The notes under the pieces were generated by a model, which ran no database searches, was not told the DNA's origin, and saw only the letters and a program-made list of their open reading frames with translations. The translations under genes were made by a program, and so were the position numbers. From an uncultured delta proteobacterium (GTDB lineage Bacteria; Myxococcota_A; Polyangia; Polyangiales; Polyangiaceae), in contig CAVOKF010000003.1 of the NCBI GenBank assembly GCA_963696385.1, positions 416,001 to 480,000 of the forward strand: a stretch of 64,000 bases of DNA, read 5' to 3'. Shown one piece after another: positions 1,207-60,605 of the stretch (its first letter is position 1; each line of letters starts with the position of its first letter).

Positions 1207-3952
1207 CTAGTGGGCCTCGGCCCAACTCTTTCCCCAGCCCACGTCTACCACGAGCGGGACGGCGAGCTTGATGACGCCCGACATTCGCCCCCGAATGCGC
1301 TCGCCCGCCTCGGCCGCGTCGGCCTCCGGGACTTCGAACACGAGCTCGTCGTGCACGGTGAGCACCAAGGGCGTTCGCAGCGCTTGCTCACCGAGCCCAA
1401 GATCGACCATGGCGAGCTTCAGGATGTCCGCCGCCGTCCCCTGAATCGGTGTGTTTCGTGCCACACGCTCCGCCTCGAGCCGCAGCGCGCGATTGGCGGA
1501 GTGCAGGTTCGGCAAGAATCGGCGTCGTCCGAGCAGCGTGCGAACGGATTCGGCTTGGCGTGCCGCCTCGACGGTGTGATCCATGAACCTCGCCACGCCC
1601 GCATAGCGAGTGAAGTACGCGGCGATGAAGCGGGCGGCTTGCTCGCGAGCCACGCCGAGCTGTTTGGCGAGCGCACTGTCGCCCATGCCGTAAATCACGC
1701 CGAAGTTGATCGTTTTGGCCGCGCGCCGCTCGTCGGCCGTTACCCTGTCGCGCGCCTTGTCGAAAACGAGTGCGGCGGTGCGCACGTGAACGTCCTCGCC
1801 CGTCGCGAACGCATCGATAAGCTCGCTATCCTGCGCGAGGTGCGCCAGGACGCGCAGCTCGATCTGCGAGTAGTCGGCACTCAAGATGACGTGCCCCGGC
1901 GGCGCCACGAACGCCGCCCGAATGGCGCGGCCCACACCCGTTCGGATGGGGATGTTTTGCAGGTTTGGGTCGCTCGAAGACAGCCGACCCGTTGCGGCCA
2001 CTGCCTGATCGAAGCGCGTATGGATACGACCCGTGTTCGGGTCGACGCACTTCGGAAGCGCATCGATGTACGTCCCCTTCAGCTTGTCGAGCTCCCGAAA
2101 CGCGAGGATGCGCGACGGCAGCGCATGCGCATCGGCGAGAGCCTCCAGCGCGTCGGCGTCGGTCGATCGCCCCCCCTTCGGGGTGCGTTTCACGACCGGG
2201 AGCCTGAGCTCGTCAAAGAGGATTTTTTCCAATTGATCCCGCGAGCGGATCGCGAAGTCCCGGCCCGCCAGGGTCTTGCATTCACTTTCGAGATCCCGGA
2301 GCTTCTGCTCCACCGTGCGCCCGACGGCTTGCAGAGTCGCCACGTCCACGAGCACGCCCCGCAACTGCATCGCACAGAGGACACTCTCGAGCGGCATCTC
2401 GACATCCCGCATCCATCCGTCGAGTCCGTCGCCGGCGAGGCGCGACTCCATGCGCGCGCGGAGATCGAGTGCCATCTCCGCGCTTGCCGCCGCGAGGGGT
2501 GCGGCTCGTACCACGTCCAGCTCTTCGAACACGGCGCGAGAACCTCGCGACTTCGGCGAAGGTTCGTCGTACCGCGTCACCCGGACGCCGATTCTCTCTC
2601 GGCCAGATCGTTCAGACCGTTCGGCGCCTCGGGGTCCAGCAGGTACGCCGCGATCATCGTATCGAAGGCCGGGCCCCCGATCGTCACCCCGACACGCGCC
2701 AAAAGCGTCATGCAACGCTTGAGATCGTGACCCACCTTCGTGACACTCGCGTCCGCCAACAGCGGAGCCAGCCGCGGTCGAACGCACTGCCATTGGAGCT
2801 GAGTCGGGCATCCTAAGTACCGGTGCGCAAGCGGAATGTAGTGGCCACGACCTGCCTCGGTCGCGAGCGACACGCCCACGATCTCGGCTCGCGTAGCGGC
2901 CGGACCCGTCGCTTCGACGGCGATTCCGATCACGGCCTTGCGGCGCGCCTCGGCCACGACCGCTTCGAGCGACTCGATGTCGAGCACGCAGCCGTACACG
3001 CGTACGGCAGGCACCGCTTGAACGGCCGTCTTCGCCGGCGAACCTTCGCGCTCGCCGTCCGAGAGTTGATCAAGCTGGCCCAGCTGACGATGAAACTCCA
3101 GTTCGGTATACAGAGCACGCAGCGCGGCTATGTCCGCCCCGCCCCAAAGCAATTTCTTTGGTTCCAATCCAGAGGGGCGTCCACGTCGAGCGTCACGAGC
3201 TTGAGGGAGACGCGCGCGTCGGCCTCGTGCTGGCGCAAGCTCTCACGCAGCTTCGGCTTCGACACGTCATCGAGCGCGCCGAAGATGGCGTCGAAGGAAC
3301 CGAACTTCGCGAGAAGATCCGAAGCCGTCTTGGGTCCCACGCCGGGGACGCCCGGTACGTTGTCGCTCGTATCGCCGGTCAGCGCGAGAAAGTCACGCAC
3401 TCGACTGGGCGGCACCCCAAGCTTTTCGCGCACCTCCGCTGGACCGTAGACCCTGTCGCGCATCGAATCCCACAAGACGACTCGATCGTCGTCGTCGCGA
3501 ACGAGCTGCATCAGGTCCTTGTCGGCACTCACGATGACGACGCGCAGTCCTTCGGCCAACGCCCGTTTCGTCACGGCGCCGATGAGGTCGTCCGCTTCGA
3601 GCCCGTCCTTGCGGAAACACGCCGCGTCCCAAGCGTGCACGATTTGCTCGACGCGATTCATTTGCTGCGAGAGATCCGGCGGCGGTGCCGGACGTGTCGC
3701 CTTGTATCGAGCATCGACCTCGTGACGAAACGTCGGCCCTTTCGAATCCATGGCGACCGCAAGCCTGTGGGGCCGACGCTCGGTCACGATTTTTTGCAGC
3801 ATGTTCACCGTGCCGAGCACGGCATGGGTCGGCTCGCCGCGCGAGCTCGATAGGGGTGGCAGCGCGTGGTACGCGCGAAATACGTATCCGGAAATGTCGA
3901 CGAGATAGAGCGCGTCGGGCGCGCCGCGGTCGGGCAGCCTGGCCGCGCTCAT
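1207..3952 (-). CDS. polA: DNA polymerase I, split over three frames by two apparent 1-nt deletions (~3164, ~2592)
   Basis: 5'-3' exonuclease (LVDISGYVFRAYHA, EADD, GDTSDNVPGVPGVGPKTA) in 3128-3952; 3'-5' exo-like part in 2577-3167; polymerase motifs TGRLSSSDPNLQNIP, ADYSQIELR, AKTINFGVIYG, VHDE in 1207-2811. Confidence 0.95.
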
Positions 3953-4114
3953 TCTCGGCTGCGATCCAAAGCGACGGCCCCGGCGCGAGCCAAGGCACGC
4001 GACCTCGCCATGCCGCCGGAGAACCCGACCCTCGACGCCTCGCAGAGCATGCGCTGGGCTTGTTAGCGGGCCGCATGAGACTCGTCTAATGTAGTGGCGC
4101 GGCGGCGCGCTTTG

Positions 4115-5536
4115 ATGAGCGATACGAACCTCCCCTTGCGCGGTCTGGTCGCTGGAAAGTACGAGCTGGTCCGTCTCATCGGTCGCGGCGGCATGGGGTA
4201 CGTCTGGGAGGGACGGCACGCGACTTTAGCGACGCGCGTGGCCATCAAGTTCGTCGACCCGGAGTACGCTGACAGCGCGGAGGCTCGCGCGCGTTTCGTG
4301 ACGGAGGCCCGCGCCGCGGCCACGATTCGGAGCAAATACGCCATTCAGATCTACGACCATGGGTTGACCGACGACGGGCGTCCGTACATCGTCATGGAAC
4401 TCTTGGCCGGGGAACCGCTCGATCGCCGACTGGAGCGGCTGGGTCGGCTGCCGCTAGGCGAGACGGCCCGACTGCTCGGGCAGGTCTGCCGAGCACTGCA
4501 GCGTGCGCACGACGCGGGCATCATTCACCGCGACCTCAAACCAGAGAACATATTTCTCGTCAGCTCCTCCGACGACGACGAGGAGATCGCGAAGGTTCTG
4601 GATTTCGGCATCGCCAAGTTCAAGGGCCTTCCGGGCGGACCGGCTGTGACGAGCAGCACAAGGACGGGAGCCGTGCTCGGTACCCCCTTCTACATGTCGC
4701 CGGAACAAGCGCGCGGGTTGCGCGACATCGACCACCGGACCGACCTTTGGTCGCTCGGCGTGATCGCGTACAAATGCGTCACCGGCATGTTGCCCTTCGA
4801 CGGCGAGAGCGTGGGGGACCTGCTGGTCAAAATCTGCACTGCCCCCCTTCCGGTTCCCTCTGTGACGCTGCCCGGACTGCCGGTCGGGTTCGACCGATGG
4901 TTCACGCGTGCACTCGAGCGCGAGCCCGGCCGGCGTTTCGGGTCGGCGTCGGAGCTCGCGGACGCCCTCGCCGCGACGGCGGGCATCACCGGGGCGGGCG
5001 CCCGCGCCCATCCGTCCGGCGCCCGTCCGATCGACGCGGTCGCGCCGGGGGAGTCGGCGTCGAGCGATGCCTACGAGGCTTCGGCGGCGGGCACTGGAAC
5101 GTCGGCGCCATTCATCGCCCCATCGACCGCGCCCGCGCGATCCACGCGCGCCAAGTGGATCGGTGTCGTCGCTTCGGGCGTGCTCGGGGGTACCGTCGGG
5201 GTCTTGGCCGTCGTGAGGGTCGTGTCGACGGCCCCATCGAGCCCCCAGAGAGTCGTCGAGTCGCCCATCCCCATTTCGCCGGCTTCGCCGGCACCCCCGG
5301 TCTCGGTCGGGCTCCCTCCCCCATCTGCGACCGCCGCGGGTCCCGTCGGTCCGAACCCGCCGTCGGTCCCGTCGCTCGCGACTGTCCGTACGCCGAGACC
5401 TCCGAGTGGGGCCGTCGTCCTCAAGCCCGTAGCGAGCGCGCCAACGGCGGCGTCGGCACGGCCGGCCCCTGCCCTCGCCTCGTCGTCTGCGGTGCCGGCA
5501 ACTTCCAAACCGATGACGGCGGATCCGGGGTATTGA
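4115..5536 (+). CDS. Membrane Ser/Thr protein kinase (Pkn-type) with Pro/Ala-rich C-terminus
   Basis: GRGGMG, VAIK, HRDLKPEN, DFG, GTPFYMSPEQ; one TM segment. Confidence 0.95.
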   Translation: MSDTNLPLRGLVAGKYELVRLIGRGGMGYVWEGRHATLATRVAIKFVDPEYADSAEARARFVTEARAAATIRSKYAIQIYDHGLTDDGRPYIVMELLAGEPLDRRLERLGRLPLGETARLLGQVCRALQRAHDAGIIHRDLKPENIFLVSSSDDDEEIAKVLDFGIAKFKGLPGGPAVTSSTRTGAVLGTPFYMSPEQARGLRDIDHRTDLWSLGVIAYKCVTGMLPFDGESVGDLLVKICTAPLPVPSVTLPGLPVGFDRWFTRALEREPGRRFGSASELADALAATAGITGAGARAHPSGARPIDAVAPGESASSDAYEASAAGTGTSAPFIAPSTAPARSTRAKWIGVVASGVLGGTVGVLAVVRVVSTAPSSPQRVVESPIPISPASPAPPVSVGLPPPSATAAGPVGPNPPSVPSLATVRTPRPPSGAVVLKPVASAPTAASARPAPALASSSAVPATSKPMTADPGY

Positions 5537-5565
5537 CGTACCGATCGCCGGCCAAGGCCCTCCTC

Positions 5566-6882
5566 ATGCGAGTCCTTCCTTTCCTGGTCTCTGCGGCGGC
5601 CCTTGTCTGGAGCGGCGTGGCCGGCGCTCAGGTAAGCGACGCGGAACGCGCAGCCGCGCGGGAGTTGTTCAAGCAGGGCGACGAACTTCAACGAGCCGGA
5701 CGCTTCGCCGAAGCCCTCGACAAATTCGAACGCGCGCAGCAAGTGTTCGGCGCGCCCACCAACCAGCTTCGGGTCGCGGAATGCGACGCCGCCCTGGGGC
5801 GCCTGGTCGAGTCCGCGGAAGCGTATCGCGCGGTGGTGCGAACCGTGCTGCCGGTTGGGTCCCCCCCGGCGTTCCAAGCTGCGGTCGATCAGGCCAAGGC
5901 CGAGCTCGGACAGGTCGAACCGCGGGTACCGCGACTGACCGTCCAGGTGCAACCGACGGTCGACCGCGCCGAGCTGCGGATCGACGGCCAAACCGTCCCC
6001 TCGGCTCTGATCGGTGAACCGATGCCGCTCGATCCGGGCCGGCATCAAGTCGCGGTCAGCGCTCCGGGATACGCTCCGGCCGAACAGGTCATCGAGCTCA
6101 AGGAGCGCGAAAGCCAACCCGTTCGATTCGTACTCCGGTCGATGCCGACGGCGGCGCCGCCCCTGCCGCCACCGCCGCCCGCGCCCGCAAGCGCGCCGCC
6201 TCCGCCTCCACCGGCTCCGCCCTACGCTTCCGCCGCTTTAGTGCCGGCACCCCGTAGTGTCTCCGTCAATCGGCCGGTCTCGCGGCTCGGGCTCCTGTTG
6301 GGCGGTCACCTCGGCGGAGAAGTCTTGTCCGGCACCGTGCCGGTCGGGGCCGGGAAATCGGTCAACGCCGATGCGATCGCGTCGGCCGGCTTCGCATTCG
6401 GAGCGGACGCCGGCTTTCGCTTTGCGCGTCACTGGTTGGTGGGCGGCGTCGTCGAGCATGCGAGCCTCGGTCAAGGCAATCGCTCCGAACTCGGTTCCGG
6501 CGTCGCCGTGAGCTCCGACACGACGCTCGTCGGAGTCACCTTCGGTTTCATCGGCAATCCGGACTGGACGAGCTTTTATGGGGAGGTGGGCATTGCGAAT
6601 CGGTGGTTTCACTATCGGTCCACATGCCCCGGAGTCGGGGTAACGAGTTTCTGCGGTCCGATCGCGCCCGCGGACTACACGGACAGCAGCGCGGAATTCA
6701 CGCTGGGCGCAGGCGTCTGGATCCCAGGTGGCCGCTCGTTCCGGTTGCTCCCCAAGGCGACGCTGGGCTTAGGGGCGTTCAATCAGCCCGACCAAGACGC
6801 GGGCGCCGCCACGGCGACGAGCGCACCGTGGCACACGTTTTTCATGATTGGCATTGCGGGATTTTACAACCTGGACTTCTGA
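5566..6882 (+). CDS. Secreted TPR + PEGA domain protein with C-terminal beta-barrel-like region
   Basis: Signal peptide; AARELFKQG TPR-like helices; PEGA (LDPGRHQVAVSAPGY); terminal aromatic YNLDF; usual partner of myxobacterial kinases. Confidence 0.75.
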   Translation: MRVLPFLVSAAALVWSGVAGAQVSDAERAAARELFKQGDELQRAGRFAEALDKFERAQQVFGAPTNQLRVAECDAALGRLVESAEAYRAVVRTVLPVGSPPAFQAAVDQAKAELGQVEPRVPRLTVQVQPTVDRAELRIDGQTVPSALIGEPMPLDPGRHQVAVSAPGYAPAEQVIELKERESQPVRFVLRSMPTAAPPLPPPPPAPASAPPPPPPAPPYASAALVPAPRSVSVNRPVSRLGLLLGGHLGGEVLSGTVPVGAGKSVNADAIASAGFAFGADAGFRFARHWLVGGVVEHASLGQGNRSELGSGVAVSSDTTLVGVTFGFIGNPDWTSFYGEVGIANRWFHYRSTCPGVGVTSFCGPIAPADYTDSSAEFTLGAGVWIPGGRSFRLLPKATLGLGAFNQPDQDAGAATATSAPWHTFFMIGIAGFYNLDF

Positions 6883-48622: not shown

Positions 48623-48954
48623 GACCGCTCCTCATACCGCCCGGAAAGCGGCAGAAGCAACCGCTTCTGGGGTTTCGAGGGTTGGCGCTCGCCGCCCTCT
48701 GGATCGGGTTCCTGGGCTTGCTCGACCTGCTGCCCCCAGCGCGAGGTGGGCACGCGGTCGGCGGGCGCCAAATCCTGTTCAGCGGCTCTGCGAGGATCGC
48801 CGGCAGCAGGTCGCAGCCGAATGATCACCGGGGGTGCGCCGAGGGGTGATCGGCGGTACAGGGGGTGCCCGCAACGCGTGCCGCGCCTCTTGGTAGGCGA
48901 GCGAAGAGCACACGCGCAAAGTATACGTCGCAGTTATCGAGACTACAGATTTTT

Positions 48955-48992
48955 GCCCCCGTAGCTCAGAGGATAGAGCAGCGGTTTCCTAA
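48955..48992 (+). pseudogene. 5' half of tRNA-Arg(CCT), truncated after the anticodon loop (probable attL)
   Basis: GCCCCCG TA GCTC-AGAGGATA-GAGC A GCGGT TTCCTAA; the expected ACCGC strand and T arm do not follow. Confidence 0.88.
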
Positions 48993-50301: not shown

Positions 50302-50510
50302 CTCGAATGCTTGGCTCGCCTGAAAATCAAGCGCGCGTATACGCCAGACGCGCCGCTGGCAAACCGCTCGACGATAACGATCTCGCGGTGATCGGCGAGC
50401 TGCCGGACGACCCTTCAGACGGTTGCATATCAGCACTCGAGCTCGGCGACCAGACTCCCGAGGACATCGCCGAAATCGAACGCCTCGTCAAAGAAAAGAT
50501 GGGCGCGTAA
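50298..50510 (+). CDS. Small acidic hypothetical protein
   Basis: Start/stop overlaps on both sides. Confidence 0.6.
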   Translation: MTRMLGSPENQARVYARRAAGKPLDDNDLAVIGELPDDPSDGCISALELGDQTPEDIAEIERLVKEKMGA

Positions 50511-52078
50511 TGGCCAGCATAACGCCGATCGAGAGCAGGCGCATATTGGAATTGGTCGACGGATTTCCGAAGACGGATTCTGGCAATGCCGAAAGGCTTA
50601 TCGCGCTCAGCGGTCGAGAGCTCCGATACGTGCGTACGTGGTCGAAGTGGATCGCCTGGAATGGCAAACATTGGACGCTGGACGAAGGCGCTCCGCACCG
50701 CGCAGCGAAGGCCATGGCCCGCGCGCTCATGAAGCAGGCGCAGCGAATCGATGATCCAGACGCGAGAAGCGCGGCCGTCCGATATTCACTCAAGTGCGAG
50801 GGCAAGGCGTCGATTGAGGCAATGGTGTCCTTGGCTCGTTACGAGCTGGCGGTTGCCATTGGCCACGAAGAGCTCGACGCCGATCCGTGGCTGCTCTGCG
50901 TTCGCAACGGCACAATCGACCTCAAAACGGGTGAGCTTCGGCCGCATCGGCGTGAGGACCTCATCACCAAGATTGCGCCCATTGACTACGACCCGGCCGC
51001 GACATGCAATCGGTTCGAGCGATTCGTATCCGAGATCATGGCGGGCGACGCTGCGCTCGTCACATTCATTCACCGGTTTCTCGGCTACTGCATGACCGGC
51101 GACGTTCGCGAGCACATTCTCGCCTTCTGGCACGGCGAGGGCGGCAACGGCAAAAGCATGCTCGCCGATCTCGTTCTCTTCGTTATGGGCGATTACGCCT
51201 GCAAAGCAGCGCCGGACCTTCTTTTCAAGGGTGAACACTCGGAGCGTCACCCGACCGAGCTTTGCGACTTGTACGGGCGGCGACTCGTCGTTTGCAACGA
51301 GACGACGAGCGGGCGCTCGTGGGACGAGGCGACGGTGAAGGACATCACCGGCGGCGACCGCATTCGAGCGCGGCGCATGCGCGAGGATTTTCGGGAGTTC
51401 AGTCCGAGCCATAAGCTGCTCGTTTTCGGGAACCATCGACCGCGTATCCGATGCGTAGACAAGGCGATGGAGCGACGGCTCCGACTCGTGCCGTTCGCCG
51501 TCAGCTTCATCGGACGTGAGGACAAGGACCTCAAGCAAGCGCTCAAGGCCGAGGGCCCTGGCGTGCTGGCATGGCTCGTCCGTGGATGCCTTCAGTGGCA
51601 GGCCGAGGGCCTTCCCGACGTCGCCGCGGTCCGCGACGCGACGCAAGCCTATCTCCGCGACGAAGACACACTCGGTCAATTTTTCGACGGCGAGTGCGTC
51701 TTCGACCCGACGGCCAAGATCAGCCGCAAGGAGCTCCGAGACCGCTATGTGGCGTGGTGCGACGACCGCGACGAGCGTCCTGTCAGTCCAAAAACGATCG
51801 CGGATGCCATCACAAGGCGCGCCGTCGTCCCGCGCAAGGTTTGGACAGCGAAGGGGCCTCGTGACGGATGGGCGGGAATTCGGCTCGCAAATGAGGCCGA
51901 ACGAACGACCGCTAGCGACATAGTGACGCCTAACGAGGAAATCCCGGTTCAACGCGATCAGAACGTTTCTCGTGAGATAACCCGGGAATTGCCGACTATG
52001 CCCACTAGCTCGCTAGACGGCGACCAAGAGGACTTCGGCGACTACCTCGAGCGCGAAGGAATTGGGGGTGAGGAGTGA
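50510..52078 (+). CDS. P4-family D5_N + SF3 helicase with wHTH (no primase domain)
   Basis: TDSGNAERL, WNGKHW, NGTIDLKTG, GEGGNGKS, KDITGGD, GNHRP, RRLRLVPF. Confidence 0.92.
   Translation: MASITPIESRRILELVDGFPKTDSGNAERLIALSGRELRYVRTWSKWIAWNGKHWTLDEGAPHRAAKAMARALMKQAQRIDDPDARSAAVRYSLKCEGKASIEAMVSLARYELAVAIGHEELDADPWLLCVRNGTIDLKTGELRPHRREDLITKIAPIDYDPAATCNRFERFVSEIMAGDAALVTFIHRFLGYCMTGDVREHILAFWHGEGGNGKSMLADLVLFVMGDYACKAAPDLLFKGEHSERHPTELCDLYGRRLVVCNETTSGRSWDEATVKDITGGDRIRARRMREDFREFSPSHKLLVFGNHRPRIRCVDKAMERRLRLVPFAVSFIGREDKDLKQALKAEGPGVLAWLVRGCLQWQAEGLPDVAAVRDATQAYLRDEDTLGQFFDGECVFDPTAKISRKELRDRYVAWCDDRDERPVSPKTIADAITRRAVVPRKVWTAKGPRDGWAGIRLANEAERTTASDIVTPNEEIPVQRDQNVSREITRELPTMPTSSLDGDQEDFGDYLEREGIGGEE
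51911..52009. repeat. Imperfect inverted repeat in the helicase 3' end, candidate replication origin
   Basis: GCTAG-CGA-CATAGT ... ACTATG-CCCA-CTAGC, with inner ATCCCGGTT / AACCCGGGAAT. Confidence 0.5.
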
Positions 52079-53181: not shown

Positions 53182-53668
53182 CCTCTTGACGGACGAGCTG
53201 ACGCAAGCGCACCTCGCGCTGCTTTTGCACCAGCTTTGGGATGAGTACTTCGAGCCCAGGCCGCGGCCTTTGCTGTTGCCGGTGATCGATGAGGGACTTG
53301 TGGAGTGCGCCAACATCCAGCGCAAGGGCACGATCTTCGTGATCACGTTCGACCGGACGACGCTGGATCTCGGTGTGGGCCGGCGGTGGCTGGTCGACGT
53401 TGCTCTGCATGAGCTCACGCATGTGCCGAGCTATCCCGAGCGCGCCTCGCACGGGCCGGGCTTTTACGCCGAGTGCTGCCGTCTTTCGCCGCTCATAGGC
53501 CTCGAGTTTTTGCCGTGCGAGGACACGGTCCACGAGTGGCCCCACAACATGCGACCCGATGGCTTTTACGAGGGGACTTATTTCGACGCGGACAGGATCG
53601 GATCGGCGTGGCTTGTCGACGTTCGCGATGCGTTCGCGTCGGTGGCCGCGCTCGAGGTGGACCCATGA
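53171..53668 (+). CDS. SprT-like Zn metalloprotease
   Basis: ALHELTH...HGPGFYAECCRL. Confidence 0.7.
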   Translation: MITDLLTDELTQAHLALLLHQLWDEYFEPRPRPLLLPVIDEGLVECANIQRKGTIFVITFDRTTLDLGVGRRWLVDVALHELTHVPSYPERASHGPGFYAECCRLSPLIGLEFLPCEDTVHEWPHNMRPDGFYEGTYFDADRIGSAWLVDVRDAFASVAALEVDP

Positions 53669-53757
53669 CTGCGCTCGATCATGGCAGCAATCATCCCGAC
53701 CGTGAACACGGCCAGACCCATGATGGCAAGGCCAACGATGTAGGTGTACTCGCCCAT
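53578..53757 (-). CDS. Small single-TM protein (59 aa)
   Basis: AGGAG RBS; MGEYTYIVGLAIMGLAVFTVGMIAAMIERS...; manual translation. Confidence 0.5.
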   Translation of the reverse strand: MGEYTYIVGLAIMGLAVFTVGMIAAMIERSHGSTSSAATDANASRTSTSHADPILSASK

Positions 53758-53759
53758 GT

Positions 53760-53933
53760 TCAGCTCCTGCTCCTGGTTCGCTCAATGATGGCGCCGAAAC
53801 CGGCAAAAAACAACCCCAAACCAAGAACGACCACGGTCCACCTCCACGACGGTAAGCCGGCCGCGATTGTCTTTTCTAGCACGCCCAGGGCCGCGACGAG
53901 CACACCAGCCTCCCGCAGAAAGTCGCCCGACAT
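53760..53933 (-). CDS. Small two-TM membrane protein (start uncertain)
   Basis: FLREAGVLVAALGVLE...WTVVVLGLGLFFAGFGAIIER. Confidence 0.55.
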   Translation of the reverse strand: MSGDFLREAGVLVAALGVLEKTIAAGLPSWRWTVVVLGLGLFFAGFGAIIERTRSRS

Positions 53934-53993
53934 CTCTGCCAAGCCTTTAGGCGCCCCCATCGGGGCCATTCCTAGCACATCCGTGGGGACTCC

Positions 53994-54566
53994 ATGGCAA
54001 TAAGGAGTGGACACGGCAACGGCGCCGGCGTGCCCCGGATCGAGGTCCTGCCTCCCGACGAGCTGCCGGATCCGGCTCCGATACCGGACGAGAGCGGTCC
54101 GATTGTGCGCCGCTCGAACGGCACGTTCGCCGATGGGGAGTCCGCCAGGCGGGCCGGTCGCAAAGGTGGCCAGCGCACGCAGCTATTCAGCCGCATCCTT
54201 CGTTCGTTGGGTTTGGCCGAGCTCTCGGCTGACCACGCGTTCTACGCCTACGAGGTGGCCGGCAAAGACTTTGCCGATGCCTACATTTCCCGCCTCACGA
54301 CCATGTTTGGCGAGTGCGGCGAGGGACCCGCCAGCATCGTGAAGACCGCCGGGATTCAGCTCGCATCGAGTCGTTACCTCTACGACCAGGGCAAGCTGAC
54401 GGGCGACGCCGAGCTCCTGGGCCAAGCGTCCAAGATGGGCAACGACCATCGCCAGAACATGCTTGCGAGTTACGAGCTCGCCGCACGGGAAGCTCAGGCG
54501 CGCGAGGCCTCCGTTCCAGACGGCGTCGATGCCCACTGGTGGTCGGACAAGAAGGGCAAGCGATGA
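53994..54566 (+). CDS. Putative terminase small subunit
   Basis: Immediately upstream of and overlapping TerL; RRSNGTF...ARRAGRKGG motif then helical region; largely positional. Confidence 0.6.
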   Translation: MAIRSGHGNGAGVPRIEVLPPDELPDPAPIPDESGPIVRRSNGTFADGESARRAGRKGGQRTQLFSRILRSLGLAELSADHAFYAYEVAGKDFADAYISRLTTMFGECGEGPASIVKTAGIQLASSRYLYDQGKLTGDAELLGQASKMGNDHRQNMLASYELAAREAQAREASVPDGVDAHWWSDKKGKR

Positions 54567-56323
54567 AGTTCACCGAATTCACCGACGACATCGGCCTGAG
54601 CCTCACGCCGGCACAACGTGTACTCTGCAAGGTTTCGTTTGATGGGACCGACCCTTGTGCGCTTGAGGGCGCGGAGCGGGAGCTTGCGCGAGTTCTGTTC
54701 GGCGAAGTCGATACGGTGCCCGCGTTGGCCCGGCGCACGATCGTGCTGACCCTTGGCCGAGGAAGCGGAAAGACGACCATCGCAGCGGCGTACGGTCTCT
54801 ATCGAATGGTGACCGCGGACCTCTCGAGGTGCGGGCCCGGTGACATTCCGCACATGATCGCGGTCGCCCCGACGACGCGAACGGCAAAGCTCGTCGTTGG
54901 CATGGCCCAGGAGCTCACGCAGTGGTCGAAGGCATTGCGTCGGCGCGTCGAATCGGAGACAAAAGAAGGATTCATTCTTCGACGTCCCGACGGCAAGCGC
55001 GTTGCTTTCTCGGCGTTCGCGGCGAGCCGTGGCGGCGCATCCGCCCGCGGGCTCTCGGTCCTCTCGTTCGTGCTCGACGAGAGTGAATTTTTTCAGAGCG
55101 ATGCGGAGTTCGTGGTCACGGACCGTGACGTCTACGGCGCGATCGTCCCCCGTCTGATGGCGGCCGGCGCGGGCGTACTGATCTCGACGCCGTGGCCCGT
55201 GCCCACCATGACGGCCGAACTGCGCGAGAAGAATTTCGGCGCCCCCTCGACGGCTCTGTGCGCAGTGGGTCCGACGCTCGTCATGCGCCCCGGCGACGAA
55301 ACTATCGAGTCGCTGGTCGCCGCCGAGCGAGAGCGCGACCCAGACAACGCGGCGCGCGAGTTCGATTGCGACGCGTCCGCGACCAGCGGCTCGAGCACTC
55401 TCTTTACCGCCGAGATGATCCGCGCATGCGTCGACATGAACCTGGCGCAGCCGTCGCCACGCGTCGGAAGCTATCACCCGAGTTTCGGTTGCGACGTCGC
55501 GTTCGTGCGCGACTCGAGCACCCTCGTCGGGTCGGTCGACAAGGAAGGCGTCGTCGAGGTGCAAACGATTCTTGAAAAGAGGCCAGAGAAAGGCCAGCCA
55601 CTTCGCCCAAAAGAGGTCGTCGACGACTTCGCGAAAGTGATTACTGATTATGGCGCGGTGAGTGTTTGGGGTGATATTCACTATAAGGAATCGGTCCGCG
55701 AACATCTCGAACCGTATCAGATCGAGTTTTGCGACGTGCCCGCTGGCGCAAACGGCAAACAGGAGACGTACCTGCACGCCCGCAAGATGCTAAGCGAGGG
55801 CCGCGTCCGCCTCCCGAACAATCCGCGCTTTCTTGCTCAGTTGAGAAGCATCGTCAGCAAGCCGATGTCCGGCGGAGGTTTGCAGATCAGCGCACCGCGC
55901 CGCGCTGGACTCGCACACGGCGACATCGTCTCGGCGTTCGTGGCGTCGCTCTGGGCTGTCAAACAGGGAGAGCAGCCGGACTGGTTGCGAGCGATGGTCG
56001 CCCTGGATCAGCGGAACGGCGTGTTGTTCGACGGCGGCAATTCTAAGATGTGCAATGAGCGATACGTGAATGCGTTGGCCGCGATTATCGGGTGGCGGAA
56101 GCGCCATGGCAATCTGCGAAAGGATACGCACACGCTCGACGTGGGCAACGACGGTACATATACATTGGTACACGCCAATTATCTGAACGGTGTAGCGCGG
56201 TGGCGTTCCAAGGACCGTTTCGGCAACGTGGTCTTCGATCCGCATTGCGAGCCGGGCTTCAAACATCAGATGGCTTGGATCTGGACAGAACTTTACTCGA
56301 ATCGTGGAGGCGAAGCGCCATGA
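54563..56323 (+). CDS. Terminase large subunit with ~110-aa C-terminal extension
   Basis: LTPAQ; Walker A GRGSGKT; Walker B FVLDESEF; ISTP; RNase-H GCDVAFVRDSS; HGDIVSA. Confidence 0.88.
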   Translation: MKFTEFTDDIGLSLTPAQRVLCKVSFDGTDPCALEGAERELARVLFGEVDTVPALARRTIVLTLGRGSGKTTIAAAYGLYRMVTADLSRCGPGDIPHMIAVAPTTRTAKLVVGMAQELTQWSKALRRRVESETKEGFILRRPDGKRVAFSAFAASRGGASARGLSVLSFVLDESEFFQSDAEFVVTDRDVYGAIVPRLMAAGAGVLISTPWPVPTMTAELREKNFGAPSTALCAVGPTLVMRPGDETIESLVAAERERDPDNAAREFDCDASATSGSSTLFTAEMIRACVDMNLAQPSPRVGSYHPSFGCDVAFVRDSSTLVGSVDKEGVVEVQTILEKRPEKGQPLRPKEVVDDFAKVITDYGAVSVWGDIHYKESVREHLEPYQIEFCDVPAGANGKQETYLHARKMLSEGRVRLPNNPRFLAQLRSIVSKPMSGGGLQISAPRRAGLAHGDIVSAFVASLWAVKQGEQPDWLRAMVALDQRNGVLFDGGNSKMCNERYVNALAAIIGWRKRHGNLRKDTHTLDVGNDGTYTLVHANYLNGVARWRSKDRFGNVVFDPHCEPGFKHQMAWIWTELYSNRGGEAP

Positions 56324-56655
56324 GAACTCGTATCGGAAGGCGCCAACCGTACATCCCCGCGCGACGGCCGATCGGGGCGGACCGCTTCGACGGTCTCATT
56401 CCGGAATTGATCCAGAACGTGATGCAAACGGACCTCGCCGAGGTACGGGGGATCCGTGGTGAGCTCGAAGAATCGGAGGAGCACAACTTCCACTTCGAAT
56501 CGTGGCCGGACGGTCGAATGGCGGTCAGCACGATGGCCAAGAACCCCGAGGTCGCCAAGTGGCATACAAAGCTCAAGGGCGACATCGAGTTCACCGACAA
56601 CGCAAGCAACTTTTTTAGGGCTTGTGCATACAGAATACGGGCGCGCAACTCATAG
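56320..56655 (+). CDS. Hypothetical protein paralogous to the TerL C-terminal extension
   Basis: GGAGG RBS, ATGA overlap; alignment given in findings. Confidence 0.7.
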   Translation: MRTRIGRRQPYIPARRPIGADRFDGLIPELIQNVMQTDLAEVRGIRGELEESEEHNFHFESWPDGRMAVSTMAKNPEVAKWHTKLKGDIEFTDNASNFFRACAYRIRARNS

Positions 56656-56681
56656 GCGATTTACCATTATCGAGGGTTCAC

Positions 56682-58097
56682 ATGACGACCAATGTCCAGC
56701 TACCCAGGATCCCAACCCGCACCGTCGGCGGCATGTTGGTGCACAGCCAAGAAGAGGGCATACGCCGGATCCGTGAGGCAGCCGCGGCTCATCGGCCCGC
56801 CTTACCCAAGGTGGCGAAGCTCGTCACGTTGGACGAGAAAATACTCCGCGACATCAATCCAATGATCGACCCCGAATCGGTGGTTCCGTTTTGGGGACCG
56901 CTCCCGACGATCATCCGACAGGGCGACGTCGAGATCGCACGGCTCGAACACATCGGCGACGCGCGACCGACGCACGATCTGTGTGCCGAGCTGCGAGGGC
57001 TCGCGGCGGACTCCGGTGTCGAAGACGACCTCAGCGAAACGTCCGAGGACCATGTTACCGAAGGTGAGGCAGCGGTCCGGGCGATCTTGCGATTCCGGCC
57101 CGAGCTGACCGGCATTCGCCGCTTCTCACGGCCCGATCTGGCGGTCGATATGTGCGCCGTGGACGAGGGTCGCGCGTGGGGACTCAGTGCAGAGCGGATC
57201 GCGGCCCTGGTCGGGCACGCGGTCACGTCGGGGCGTCGATTGAAGGCGCCGTGCTCTCGTGCTCGCGAGCTCGAGGCCGCGGCACGGATCGCGAACGAGA
57301 AGATCGAACAAGAGGCGCAGGCGGCGCAGCGCGCGTACGCCGAGGCGAACCGCGTCGAGTCCCGAACGATTAAGTCGCTTGGGTTGCAAGGCTTGCAGAT
57401 CGATTTTGGGTTGCCCGGGGTGTCGCGCCCCGCGGAACTCGGTGCGGCTACTTGGATCGATAACCTCGCCGTGTGGCGTTCGATCCCTGGGATCTCGATC
57501 CCTCAGGTCAAATTCGCGGTGGGGTCCACGCTCGATCCCAATACGATCGTCACGGCCAACGCTGCGATGCTCGCGTCTGTCGGATTTCCAGACATTGAGA
57601 CATACGGTCTCGTCGTCCGCATCCTTCAAAAATACCTACCGGACAGACGCACTGGCCCGGTCGACACGTTTTCGAAAGTACATCTCGAGGCCGCGCGCGA
57701 ATGCGTACGCCCGCTCATGCCGTATGTGTACTCTACACGTACAGGACTCGGGTACATGCCTCGACTTGTCACGGAGATCGCGGTCAGGGGCTTCATGGTC
57801 TCTCCACCCGCCGCGGTCGCGTTGATCTGGTCCGAGCTCTTGGATCAAGAGAGCATGTCGGCACATCGTCAGATTCCGGTGCAGGCGGGCGCAATCGGGA
57901 CAACGCATCCGCCGATCCGGATCTTGCAGGATCCCAATATGCAGCAGATCGACAAGATCGACCTGCGAGTGACTAGGCCTGTTGAGCGGACGTACGCCGG
58001 GGCGACGAGCAAAGATCAGTTGGCCTCCTGGGCCGCGGAGGCCGCAAGCGGCGGCATCGTCGAAGTCGGATCTCTACTTTCGAAGAAAGGTAAGTGA
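56682..58097 (+). CDS. Hypothetical protein (471 aa) with central coiled coil
   Basis: GAGG RBS; long intact ORF; I recognise no portal or capsid motifs. Confidence 0.7.
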   Translation: MTTNVQLPRIPTRTVGGMLVHSQEEGIRRIREAAAAHRPALPKVAKLVTLDEKILRDINPMIDPESVVPFWGPLPTIIRQGDVEIARLEHIGDARPTHDLCAELRGLAADSGVEDDLSETSEDHVTEGEAAVRAILRFRPELTGIRRFSRPDLAVDMCAVDEGRAWGLSAERIAALVGHAVTSGRRLKAPCSRARELEAAARIANEKIEQEAQAAQRAYAEANRVESRTIKSLGLQGLQIDFGLPGVSRPAELGAATWIDNLAVWRSIPGISIPQVKFAVGSTLDPNTIVTANAAMLASVGFPDIETYGLVVRILQKYLPDRRTGPVDTFSKVHLEAARECVRPLMPYVYSTRTGLGYMPRLVTEIAVRGFMVSPPAAVALIWSELLDQESMSAHRQIPVQAGAIGTTHPPIRILQDPNMQQIDKIDLRVTRPVERTYAGATSKDQLASWAAEAASGGIVEVGSLLSKKGK

Positions 58098-58102
58098 ACG
58101 CC

Positions 58103-58837
58103 ATGGGACAAAATATGAGATACGAATCGACCTCGCGAGACCCCGCACCCAACCCCGAATACGAGAGGGGCGTCGCAGACGTTCGTCGCAAAGAGCTTGC
58201 GCGGATCGGTTACGAGATCCCCGCGAACGCGTCGCCAGCCTACGTCGACGGGGTCTACGGGGTCGCCGTCAAGAAGGGGCAGGTTCGCTCGGACGCCGCG
58301 CCGCGATTTTTGGATCCGCTCGATCTCGTCTTCGCTGGAGGCGTCGAGGCGCGCTCGGACGCGATGCTGACCGAGAGCGGAGTAGAGACGAACACCGCTA
58401 CTCAAGAGGAGACGCTCGCCTCAGCCGACGAACAGCGACAGGCCGGATTCGCCCAAATGCAGGCAAAGTTCGAACGCGGCCTCGAAAATGCGACCTATGG
58501 GTATCGTCCGGCACGGGGGCACGACGGCTCGTTTCCCGGGGGGTCAAGGGGCAATAACGCGAGCACGCCACCGGGCGATCCGGAGTGGGGTCAGCGCGCT
58601 CGGGAGTCGGCTCCGCGAGTTCCGCGCGAGCAAACAGAGCACGGGCGCTCTGCCTTCGGTGGAGGCAACGAGGGCTCTTTCGAGGGATCGTTCGGCGGGG
58701 GGATGGCCACGCCTGACGTCTTCGGCGAGGGCGACTCGACGACGGCCGACGCTCGCGACGCCATGATCGCGCGCGCGCGCGACGCGTGGCGAACCCCGCA
58801 AGGCCCGCGGGCGATGGGTCGCACGCGAGGTGCATGA
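58103..58837 (+). CDS. Putative head-scaffold-like protein (resembles the C-terminal part of DUF2213 proteins)
   Basis: SPAYVDGVY...RSDA and terminal ADARDAMIARARDAW; resemblance from recall. Confidence 0.5.
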   Translation: MGQNMRYESTSRDPAPNPEYERGVADVRRKELARIGYEIPANASPAYVDGVYGVAVKKGQVRSDAAPRFLDPLDLVFAGGVEARSDAMLTESGVETNTATQEETLASADEQRQAGFAQMQAKFERGLENATYGYRPARGHDGSFPGGSRGNNASTPPGDPEWGQRARESAPRVPREQTEHGRSAFGGGNEGSFEGSFGGGMATPDVFGEGDSTTADARDAMIARARDAWRTPQGPRAMGRTRGA

Positions 58838-58840
58838 GCC

Positions 58841-59164
58841 ATGACGTCAGCCGTGTTTGACCGTCGTGACGCCTTGACCGGGACACCAGTTGTGCCGGAG
58901 CCGACGGCGCCGATGCAAACCGACGATGAATTTCGCGCGACCGCGGAGACCAAGCGGGATTCCCTCACGTTTCGCAAGGACGCCGCCGACGTCCTCCGAT
59001 CGCTCAAGGCGCTGCGCCCAGGCGACAGGCGAAATCTGTACGCATGGCTATTTTGGAATGAGGTTGCAGACCTAGGACCCAATGCCGAAATCACGTTCGG
59101 CGGAATGCGTATCCGAACCGGCGCCAACACGCTCGCCGGGGCACCTGTGGAGAAAAACAAATGA
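58841..59164 (+). CDS. Hypothetical protein
   Basis: GAGGT RBS; RRDA, KRDS, RKDA motifs. Confidence 0.6.
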   Translation: MTSAVFDRRDALTGTPVVPEPTAPMQTDDEFRATAETKRDSLTFRKDAADVLRSLKALRPGDRRNLYAWLFWNEVADLGPNAEITFGGMRIRTGANTLAGAPVEKNK

Positions 59165-59337
59165 GCCAAGAATTCGTATGTTCAATCGACGCGACCGTGC
59201 CAGCCCCTACCGCGGAAGCCCAGGTCAAACTCGAGGTCGCCGCGTCCGTTGACGCCTCGGTGGATCTCGCTCCGGCCACACCGGCCGGGTTACGATGGAA
59301 CGAATCAAATTGGGATGAAGCGACGTGGGGGGTCTAG
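59161..59337 (+). CDS. Small protein (58 aa) with terminal Trp repeat WNESNWDEATW
   Basis: GGAG RBS, ATGA overlap; manual translation. Confidence 0.55.
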   Translation: MSQEFVCSIDATVPAPTAEAQVKLEVAASVDASVDLAPATPAGLRWNESNWDEATWGV

Positions 59338-59339
59338 CC

Positions 59340-60605
59340 ATGTCCGGCCAACCCCCAATCGGGACCTGGGCGACGACGACCGACTACCCTCCGGGTTCGA
59401 GCCCGTGGAGCGGTAATCCCACGAAGATCCAGCCAACCCAAACGTATTGGATTCCGGCGACCGGCGTGAGCGCCCCCGAACACAATTACATCATCAACCA
59501 GCTCTACGCGGAACTTGCCGCCGTCGAAGCCGCGGGCGGATCGGCGCTCGTTGCGCAGAACTGGCAATCTGTCATCGCCGCGGGGCCGGCGAACGCGAAC
59601 GCCCTCGCGTGGAATCCAATATTGAGCAGCGGCGGCGCGTTCATCACCGTCGAAAAGAACTCTGGGCCGCTCTACCAGTTCGTATACAACAGCGGCGCGG
59701 ACCTCGTTTGGACGACGCTTGGCTCGACATTCAACGTGAACTCGAGCTCGCCGAACGTTACGGCACTCGCGTGCGGTCCCGCGCAAGGCGTAACATGGGC
59801 GAGTTTTATCAATTCGAGCAACGTCGGATATCTATGGTCGTGCACCGTCGGCGGTTCTACGGACGCGCTGCTAGGTACAGGTAATGTATCCAACATGTAT
59901 CTAGCCGCTGCCGCAACGTCCGGCGTCGACTGGGGCGTTCTCGCTATCGCATCCGGCACGTCCGGCGATTCAGCGCTGTACTTCCTGACCGCCACCGGCG
60001 CGACGGGCTTGTCGACCGGCCTCACCGAAGCGCAATGGGCCGTTGCGTCGAACGGGTCGCTCGTCGTCGCAGTTGGCACCGACCGGATCGTGTATTCCAT
60101 ATCGTCCTCCAGCGGAACGTCCGGCACCGTCTCAACAGCGAATATCGCCTCCGTGCTCGGTACCGATCTGCCAATCTCCATGGCGTACGGCACGAGTACC
60201 ACGTTCCCCTCCGGCGCGTTCATCCTTTGCTGCTCCACAACGACAAGCGGACAGCGTCGCTATTACGCGAGTCAAACCGGTACCGGCGCGACTTGGGTTT
60301 CGCTCGGCGTCGCGACGACCTCGGCGGCGGCTGAAGTCTCGCAAATCGTCGCGTGCGGAAGCCTTTGGCTCGGACTCGTATCGCTGGCCGGCGGGGTCGC
60401 TGGAGTGATCATGGCCCCGAACGGCATCGACTTCGGTGGATCGGCCACGGGCAACTGGCAATCGACCCAGACTCGCGTGGTCCCGAGCGGATCCGCGGAA
60501 CCGATGATCGCCGCTGGGCCCACCCAGGCCGCGATTGCGATGGCAGATGGCGGCCCAACGTTCCGGTTCAGCCAGATCAGCGGGCCCGGCACGGCGTTGA
60601 CGTGA
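59340..60605 (+). CDS. Tail-fibre/receptor-binding-like virion protein
   Basis: N-terminal WA...PWSGNPTK...WIP...APEHNYIINQL, then an S/T/G/A-rich beta region; no signal peptide. Confidence 0.55.
   Translation: MSGQPPIGTWATTTDYPPGSSPWSGNPTKIQPTQTYWIPATGVSAPEHNYIINQLYAELAAVEAAGGSALVAQNWQSVIAAGPANANALAWNPILSSGGAFITVEKNSGPLYQFVYNSGADLVWTTLGSTFNVNSSSPNVTALACGPAQGVTWASFINSSNVGYLWSCTVGGSTDALLGTGNVSNMYLAAAATSGVDWGVLAIASGTSGDSALYFLTATGATGLSTGLTEAQWAVASNGSLVVAVGTDRIVYSISSSSGTSGTVSTANIASVLGTDLPISMAYGTSTTFPSGAFILCCSTTTSGQRRYYASQTGTGATWVSLGVATTSAAAEVSQIVACGSLWLGLVSLAGGVAGVIMAPNGIDFGGSATGNWQSTQTRVVPSGSAEPMIAAGPTQAAIAMADGGPTFRFSQISGPGTALT

Follow-up and report, generated by a model that had tools for sequence, protein, structure and literature searches.

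The 64,000-nucleotide (nt) stretch analysed here, in the following called the window, comes from a contig of an uncultured member of the Polyangiaceae and carries an integrated element whose packaging genes are the subject of this text. Three of them stand next to each other: the gene for a large terminase subunit (TerL) with a long C-terminal extension, a free-standing open reading frame (ORF) of 111 amino acids (aa) that starts on the TerL stop codon, and a gene for a 471-aa protein in the portal slot. The 111-aa ORF is most likely a small subunit that is made together with TerL by ATGA coupling and works at the terminase-portal junction, and the last residues of its family resemble the conserved block in which the TerL proteins of sister elements end. 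The features concerned, in window coordinates, are:

54563..55936, plus strand, TerL core, residues 1-458, ATPase and nuclease (phrog_2), ending at HGDIVSA (452-458)
55937..56320, plus strand, TerL C-terminal extension, residues 459-586, in frame after HGDIVSA
56150..56281, plus strand, 44-aa motif stretch within the TerL extension that was pointed out in an earlier note on this DNA, starting at residue 530
56306..56310, plus strand, GGAGG, a Shine-Dalgarno-like site 9 nt upstream of the ATG of the free ORF
56320..56655, plus strand, free ORF, 111 aa, with an ATGA overlap on the TerL stop codon (56321-56323)
56551..56649, plus strand, C-terminal ~33 residues of the free ORF (78-110), matching the extreme C-terminus of sister TerL proteins in F-x7-F-R-x-x-V ... 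R
56682..58097, plus strand, portal-slot protein ("portal-like"), 471 aa, so named from gene order only

A sibling element lies in inverted orientation on the same contig (C3 64601-80899, with a 44-bp repeat, at tRNA-Gly(CCC)) and encodes a free-ORF homologue of 112 aa (41% identity, E=3.7e-16), which has the same ATGA overlap and a G-rich run upstream. Together with a metagenome protein of 109 aa these two make up the whole family in everything searched, the three members being 39-55% identical; they are labelled free1 (window), free2 (sibling, identical to P0123) and P0003 (metagenome). A hidden Markov model (HMM) search of 1.84 billion representatives returned only P0003 and P0123, plus three giant repetitive proteins over short stretches, and a word search of 5.8 billion proteins with the free ORF gave one relative. 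Among the 401 genomes of the order, matches were limited to the genome itself and three weak ones, one of them in a non-phage context; the remaining pair (E~0.003) falls within open frames of 675 and 571 aa. Nothing was found with the free ORF in the IMG/VR scan, and no Pfam, PHROG or NCBIfam family was matched at the thresholds used; the similarity to NCBIfam TrbB is sub-threshold (E=0.016, 14.7 bits versus a cut-off of 499).

The frame, the start overlap and the 39-55% identity are kept where the DNA of the two elements can no longer be aligned, which argues for a function of the free ORF. To judge from this conservation, the free ORF is a real gene that is translationally coupled to TerL in both elements. 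Its metagenome relative is a mosaic, the N-terminal half of P0003 being 74.5% identical to free1 and the C-terminal half 64.8% identical to free2, which suggests that the protein has two separately exchangeable halves. AlphaFold2 (AF2) with a three-row alignment produced a low-confidence model with the order helix, hairpin, helix (predicted local distance difference test, pLDDT, 50.1; predicted template modelling score, pTM, 0.22). A programmed frameshift that would fuse TerL to the free ORF was considered as well and rejected, as there is no slippery heptamer before the stop and the free frame of the paralogue is not open upstream. Small ORFs that overlap the end of TerL and precede the portal are also present next to two distant TerL relatives (L023:2345-2671, 108 aa; L029:5574-5846, 90 aa); neither has a family match, and a scan of the loci with the free-ORF HMM did not recover them. 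The slot, which corresponds to that of gpW in phage lambda, is used repeatedly by unrelated small genes.

TerL itself (54563-56323, 586 aa) matches two PHROG profiles of the terminase large subunit, phrog_2 (8.1e-17) and phrog_9 (1e-8). Pfam gives only a weak AAA_19 match and nothing else at E<=0.1; PF03237 or PF17289 is present in several of its relatives. The motifs GRGSGKT (65-71), LDE (171-173) and HGD (452-454) can be located, and in an alignment of 21 TerL sequences G65, G69, K70, E173 and D311 are invariant and D172, H452, G453 and D454 nearly so. The family profile, the Walker A motif, a Walker B-like motif and the acidic nuclease residues identify the protein as a large terminase.

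That TerL continues beyond HGDIVSA had been recognised in the earlier note, which put the continuation at ~110 aa; it comprises 128 aa. The extension consists of a helix segment (W-x-R-A-M ... R-x-G) common to several relatives and of a part of ~100 aa that was found only in the window element and its paralogue. All 121 TerL relatives (34-63% identity) cease to align at query residue 433-493 and carry unrelated tails of 6-229 residues beyond the aligned part. The TerL of the sibling has the same extension, in frame and free of stops; in neither element does a stop codon stand between TerL and the extension, and an assembly artefact is therefore unlikely. The cores of the two TerL proteins are only 20.4% identical (86/422 aligned residues); the identity of the extensions amounts to 44.0%, or 47.3% from residue 472. 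Three IMG/VR relatives of the sibling TerL (43-47% identity) align only as far as residues 412-433 and have short helical tails. Since the extensions are more similar than the cores and relatives of each core lack them, the extension is a module placed on two unrelated TerL cores. It is real, selectively conserved and mobile.

Searched for in 401 genomes of the order, the extension profile turned up twice, both times in the genome to which the window belongs, and the IMG/VR scan yielded nothing. A word search of 5.8 billion proteins with TerL residues 440-586 also gave no relative, in a search that is insensitive at 44% identity because it missed even the paralogue in the same genome. AF2 with a two-row alignment returned a low-confidence, predicted beta-rich model of the extension (pLDDT 40.2). 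In the TerL family as a whole (P0004-P0122, L010-L093) everything that follows the H-G-D ... V-S-A helix varies extremely, with lengths of 6-229 residues and recurring tail classes. One of them, a helical charged tail of ~65-75 aa with P-G-[ST]-P-E-W, accompanies podovirus-type portals of ~650-720 aa; the tail class of a TerL may be a quick predictor of the portal type.

Several relatives possess long tails (L051, L058, L071, P0037, P0043/L020, P0006 and P0005). The first helix of the window's extension recurs in these sister tails (hhalign P=2.2e-7, 30 columns), which close with a conserved block whose core pattern is F-[ST]-x3-[ST]-x2-F-R-x-A-V-x2-Y-R. The last ~21-33 residues of the free-ORF family match this block, which is at the extreme C-terminus in both classes of protein. 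Comparing the two C-terminal blocks with each other, hhalign gave a score of 26.4 (P=4.8e-5, 33 columns), reached by 0/150 column shuffles (maximum 14.7); with the full alignments of sister tails and free ORFs P was 3e-4 and 0/200 shuffles attained the score. In a set of 3026 sequences an HMM of the tail block found its 8 members and then, as first non-member, free2 (E=0.0019); P0003 followed with E=0.23. The best single pair is the L058 tail and free2 (score 53, z=6.8, 0/1000 shuffles). Other pairs were equalled per 1000 shuffles by 1 (L058 and P0003), 3 (P0037 and free2), 7 (L071 and free2) and 14 (L051 and the window copy, the best pair of the latter); 21 pairs of tail and free ORF were compared in all, and for 12 of them more than 100/1000 shuffles did as well. 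The window-type extension shows no such match to the tail block: its hhalign score was reached by 62/150 shuffles and the HMM gave no match. At the level of the family the free ORFs probably carry a C-terminal peptide of the sister type; the window's own copy matches weakly.

Two side observations concern these alignments. The TerL at L020:459-2525 has the tail of P0043 up to the last ~15 residues, followed by ~115 Arg/Ala/Pro-rich residues that overlap the next gene; the missing end lies in another frame (piece 2065-2220), which makes a frameshift or an assembly error likely. Furthermore, a MAFFT alignment of extensions and sister tails contradicts the hhalign register and was not used for AF2.

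From this match we tentatively favour the possibility that the free ORF supplies the portal-docking peptide of TerL in trans. A number of results weigh against it. In the 3026 sequences the window's own free ORF is the weakest copy for the tail-block HMM (E=1.5), and it is the most divergent of the three family members. When the same HMM was run against 90,111 pieces of the genome, free2 ranked third (E=0.067) and two unrelated pieces scored as high or higher; the window's free ORF is absent among the 470 pieces listed at E<=100. The reverse search with the free-ORF HMM gave the L058 TerL only E=4 among 3021 sequences, and between the N-terminal halves of the free ORF and the sister tails 123/150 shuffles reach the score. 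The match covers only 21-33 residues, which are Ala/Arg-rich and probably helical, and it is based on three free ORFs and seven tails, the set of tails having been picked after the long tails had been seen. In addition, the two elements are paralogues, so that finding extension and free ORF together in both amounts to about one observation, and the portal-slot protein is identified as a portal by gene order alone.

A possibility about as likely as docking in trans is that the resemblance is due to chance or composition, or that the C-terminus is a 3' leftover of an older TerL, dating from the recombination by which the present TerL arrived. The role of the free ORF would then be an unrelated one, for example nucleic-acid binding by its basic N-terminus. 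The shortness of the match in a high-GC, Ala/Arg-rich setting is in line with this, as are the genome-wide value for free2 and the poor score of the window copy. The same is true of the region 54070-57246, a recombination patch between the two elements, and of P0003, which is itself a mosaic of the free1 and free2 halves given above. However, the shuffle controls were clean (0/150, 0/200 and 0/1000), the motif stands at the extreme C-terminus in both protein classes, and the free ORF has kept its frame, start overlap and protein identity where the DNA is unalignable.

The 471-aa protein and six relatives have no match in Pfam, PHROGs, NCBIfam or PDB sequences (nothing below E=0.65), the ESM Atlas returned nothing for the 471-aa protein, and nothing was found with the portal pair in the IMG/VR scan. 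In L058 a homologue of the 471-aa protein stands between TerL and a head maturation protease (phrog_530 8.2e-60, DUF2213 8.1e-35), after which comes a homologue of a 426-aa protein of the element. Among TerL relatives at greater distance, TerL is followed by a gene for a recognisable podovirus-type portal, with PF12236 in L023 and L029 (above the Pfam cut-off in L029) and a sub-threshold match to PF23899 in L027. The 471-aa family (~470-500 aa) was seen in L004, L020, L036, L051, L058 and L071; its members in the two elements are 43-50% identical at the N-end and increasingly alike towards the C-end, where the identity reaches 87%.

Homologues of the 471-aa protein follow TerL directly in 5/84 related loci, and four of these (L020, L051, L058 and L071) carry the tail block. 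The start of the portal-slot homologue in these four varies from a 292-nt overlap with to a 239-nt gap after the TerL end, and the free-ORF HMM found no copy in any of them. In the fifth locus, L036 (TerL 3485-5605), the tail is Cys/His-rich with C-x2-C ... C-x2-H, resembles a zinc ribbon and has no shared C-terminal block. In the 41 loci for which 1500 nt or more are available downstream, the tail type goes with the portal-slot type (4/4 versus 1/37), the 41 loci being kin and not independent samples. Both elements with a free ORF, which are paralogues, have the other kind of TerL end. Each of the six elements with known context thus has the motif a single time, either at the end of TerL or in the free ORF and never in both. 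A complex prediction for the 471-aa protein with the free ORF scored 0.00 in both runs, which were made without controls, and speaks for binding as little as against it.

The conserved block at the end of sister TerLs would most simply be their docking peptide, because the C-terminal tail of the P22 TerL is needed for portal binding. A passage of PMC5290284 states that P22 TerL without residues 483-499 fails to bind the procapsid portal and that the like has been reported for T3 and lambda. The sister elements would be comparable to the tails of P22 gp2 (483-499), lambda gpA and T3 gp19, in that a conserved peptide ends TerL and its type tracks that of the portal slot. The window element differs from the gp2-type tails in two respects: its matching peptide ends a separate protein of 111 aa, and its TerL ends in the ~100-aa module, which occurs in 0/121 relatives and, of the 401 genomes of the order, in the window's own only. 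To our knowledge, the docking determinant of known systems lies at the end of TerL itself, and narrow full-text searches of the literature found no TerL-type C-terminal peptide on a separate small protein.

Docking in trans would accordingly be arranged as follows. In the lineage of the window the docking peptide that ends TerL in sister elements would have moved onto a separate protein, and TerL would end instead in the different, predicted beta-rich module of ~100 aa. The free ORF would grip the TerL extension, perhaps with its first 25 residues, which are conserved and probably disordered, and its C-terminal peptide would insert into the portal. We infer here that the 471-aa protein is the portal, that the motif docks on it and that the free ORF binds the extension. 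The fuller version of this proposal is slightly less likely: a split-off docking peptide on the coupled 111-aa subunit would bridge the novel TerL domain to the portal, and extension and free ORF would form a cassette for unrelated TerL cores.

How the pentameric terminase grips the dodecameric portal is structurally still poorly resolved. A small protein other than terminase that promotes the joining of terminase and prohead exists in lambda: gpFI is encoded after the capsid gene and said to act on the capsid protein. The free ORF is likened to it by concept alone, as a small helper of terminase-prohead engagement; the position of the gene differs.

The slot of the free ORF invites yet another explanation, according to which it is a head-completion or adaptor protein like lambda gpW. 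It would bind the portal after packaging and seal the head or receive the tail, TerL would dock by its own extension, and the likeness to TerL tail ends would reflect the use of the same portal cleft, by descent or convergence. We regard this as unlikely on balance. The layout of lambda (A 711-2636, W 2633-2839 for the head-tail adaptor Ad1, B 2836-4437) has the same small gene between TerL and portal and the same 4-base overlap on the TerL stop. Our low-confidence helix-hairpin-helix model may resemble the fold of gpW, two helices and a hairpin. Moreover, the conserved extreme C-terminus is a feature of adaptors such as lambda gpW, P22 gp4 and the P74-26 adaptor, of which the known ones use theirs on the portal. 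Passages of two sources describe this: P22 gp4 inserts its C-terminal tail at the interface of portal protomers and the same portal 'stalk' binds both TerL and gp4 (PMC5290284), and the P74-26 adaptor binds the portal clip clefts by its C-terminal tail (PMC12407722). On the other side, gpW has 68 aa and the free ORF 111 aa, there is no similarity between them (hhalign P=0.19 over 11 columns) and no Pfam or PHROG match. The last 133 aa of lambda gpA gave P=0.18 against the free-ORF profile. The sister elements have no gene in this slot, and the adaptor explanation leaves open why the sister-type motif is missing from the window TerL.

The earlier note had offered a different account, namely that a novel domain is duplicated in the element, with one copy fused to the C-terminus of TerL, which may dock the motor on the portal of a helper phage, and the other copy free as a decoy or adaptor, a possible mechanism of interference. 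The strings quoted there and their coordinates are exact, the TerL string starting at residue 530 (nt 56150) and the free-ORF string covering residues 64-106. A shared domain could not be substantiated, the similarity staying within the range of chance in pairwise, HMM and motif-region comparisons. The Smith-Waterman score of extension versus free ORF was 30 and reached by 351/2000 shuffles, and that of the whole TerL by 132/500. Over all six pairs of the two extensions and three free ORFs the best was reached by 33/1000 shuffles and the window's own pair by 187/1000. BLASTP on the stretch in question aligned 24 aa with E=1.2 for a single comparison, and the hand-picked segments alone, chosen after the fact, were matched by 39/2000 shuffles. 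Run against the 90,111 six-frame pieces of the genome, the free-ORF HMM had 554 hits at E<=1000 that include neither TerL, and the extension HMM 528 hits that include neither free ORF.

Some results speak for the duplication. At full length hhalign aligned the two collinearly over 77-79 columns (P=0.0097-0.017, probability 3-4%), a borderline result reached by 2/200 column shuffles. In this register the predicted secondary structures agree for the first three elements, a helix and the two strands of a hairpin. The spacing F-x7-F-[KR] is common to extension and free ORF, and a language-model look-up of the free ORF led to small clusters with some GpA_nuclease/TerL_nuclease members (0.80-0.89), which is a lead only. 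Against it, the C-terminal halves with the motif scored 12.7, a value attained by 19/150 shuffles; between the N-terminal halves there was only a 6-column F-D-G match (6/150). Beyond the first helix and hairpin the AF2 models disagree, the extension having strands where the free ORF has helices, and with pLDDT values of 50.1 and 40.2 they are too poor for the folds to be compared. Nothing points to a decoy or to interference with a helper. The element has its own portal-slot gene directly downstream, so there is no reason to invoke the portal of another phage. We consider the model of duplication and decoy improbable. The suggestion that the free copy is an adaptor has gained indirect support from the C-terminal peptide that matches sister TerL ends.

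The other genes and borders of the element in the window are:

48953..48992, strand not applicable, attL, a 40-bp perfect direct repeat
50510..52078, plus strand, replication gene of the D5_N/DUF5906 primase-helicase type (PF08706 2.3e-35, PF19263 6.9e-11)
53994..54566, plus strand, gene in the small-terminase slot (TerS slot), 190 aa, assigned by position only, its 3' end overlapping the TerL start
59325..60605, plus strand, Ser/Thr/Gly-rich protein, 426 aa, with a homologue in the capsid-protein slot of L058
63719..64000, plus strand, 5' part of a tyrosine integrase gene, whose remainder lies beyond the window on the side of attR and tRNA-Arg

The 40-bp perfect direct repeats at both ends were found by blastn-short of the flanks and ARAGORN. 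The partner of attL lies outside the window at a position equivalent to 65094-65133 and is part of a tRNA-Arg(CCT) gene, from which the size of the element follows as ~16.2 kb. The complete integrase ORF, taken from the genome, matches PF00589 (3.5e-7, 30.6 bits versus a cut-off of 27.1). Close homologues of the D5_N/DUF5906 gene occur upstream of TerL in the sister loci L051 and L071, and an ERCC4-type nuclease is encoded as well. The TerS-slot protein has no match in Pfam, PHROG or NCBIfam and has homologues upstream of TerL in 21 related loci. The 426-aa protein, also without a family match, is similar to L058:8112-9479 (phmmer E=4.5e-9), which comes after the protease; its Ser/Thr/Gly/Ala-rich composition is more like that of a fibre or surface protein despite the homologue in the capsid slot. 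The IMG/VR scan with the D5 primase gave 4 loci, none with relatives of TerL, portal or free ORF.

Both elements of ~16 kb contain an integrase, a D5-type primase and a packaging/head module. They look satellite-like, because no tail genes are recognisable in either. By gene content the element is presumably comparable to cf-PICIs, the capsid-forming phage satellites, with which it shares the ~16 kb size, integration at a tRNA gene, an integrase, a primase-type gene, its own packaging and head genes and the absence of recognisable tail genes. It differs from them in that most of its head genes are without a family assignment. The two elements are mosaics of each other, the DNA ranging from 96% identical to unalignable. 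The identity is 96% at 53550-54070 and 75-80% at 57246-59285. In the interval from 54070 to 57246, which takes in TerL, the free ORF, the remainder of the TerS-slot gene and the start of the next gene, no DNA similarity between the two elements is detectable. The 521-bp patch 53550-54070 covers a minus-strand hydrophobic ORF of 84 aa (53760-54014) and the first codons of the TerS-slot gene; divergence on either side of it is much greater. A recent gene conversion could account for the patch, which may also, or instead, be a packaging or regulatory site that has been conserved.

If the likeness of the C-terminal peptides is due to chance, what remains is a small orphan gene of an ordinary kind that occupies the gpW slot in an unclassified element of 16 kb. 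If the bridge between the TerL extension and the portal is real, it would be a three-part motor-docking system and the protein counterpart of an adaptor between motor and portal. The occurrence of the same short peptide on TerL or on a separate protein in sibling elements would provide a genetic handle on the docking residues, and the locus could show whether motor docking and the later binding of an adaptor use the same portal cleft. Furthermore, a TerL end of ~120 aa can move as a module between cores that are 20% identical, which matters for the annotation and classification of terminases.

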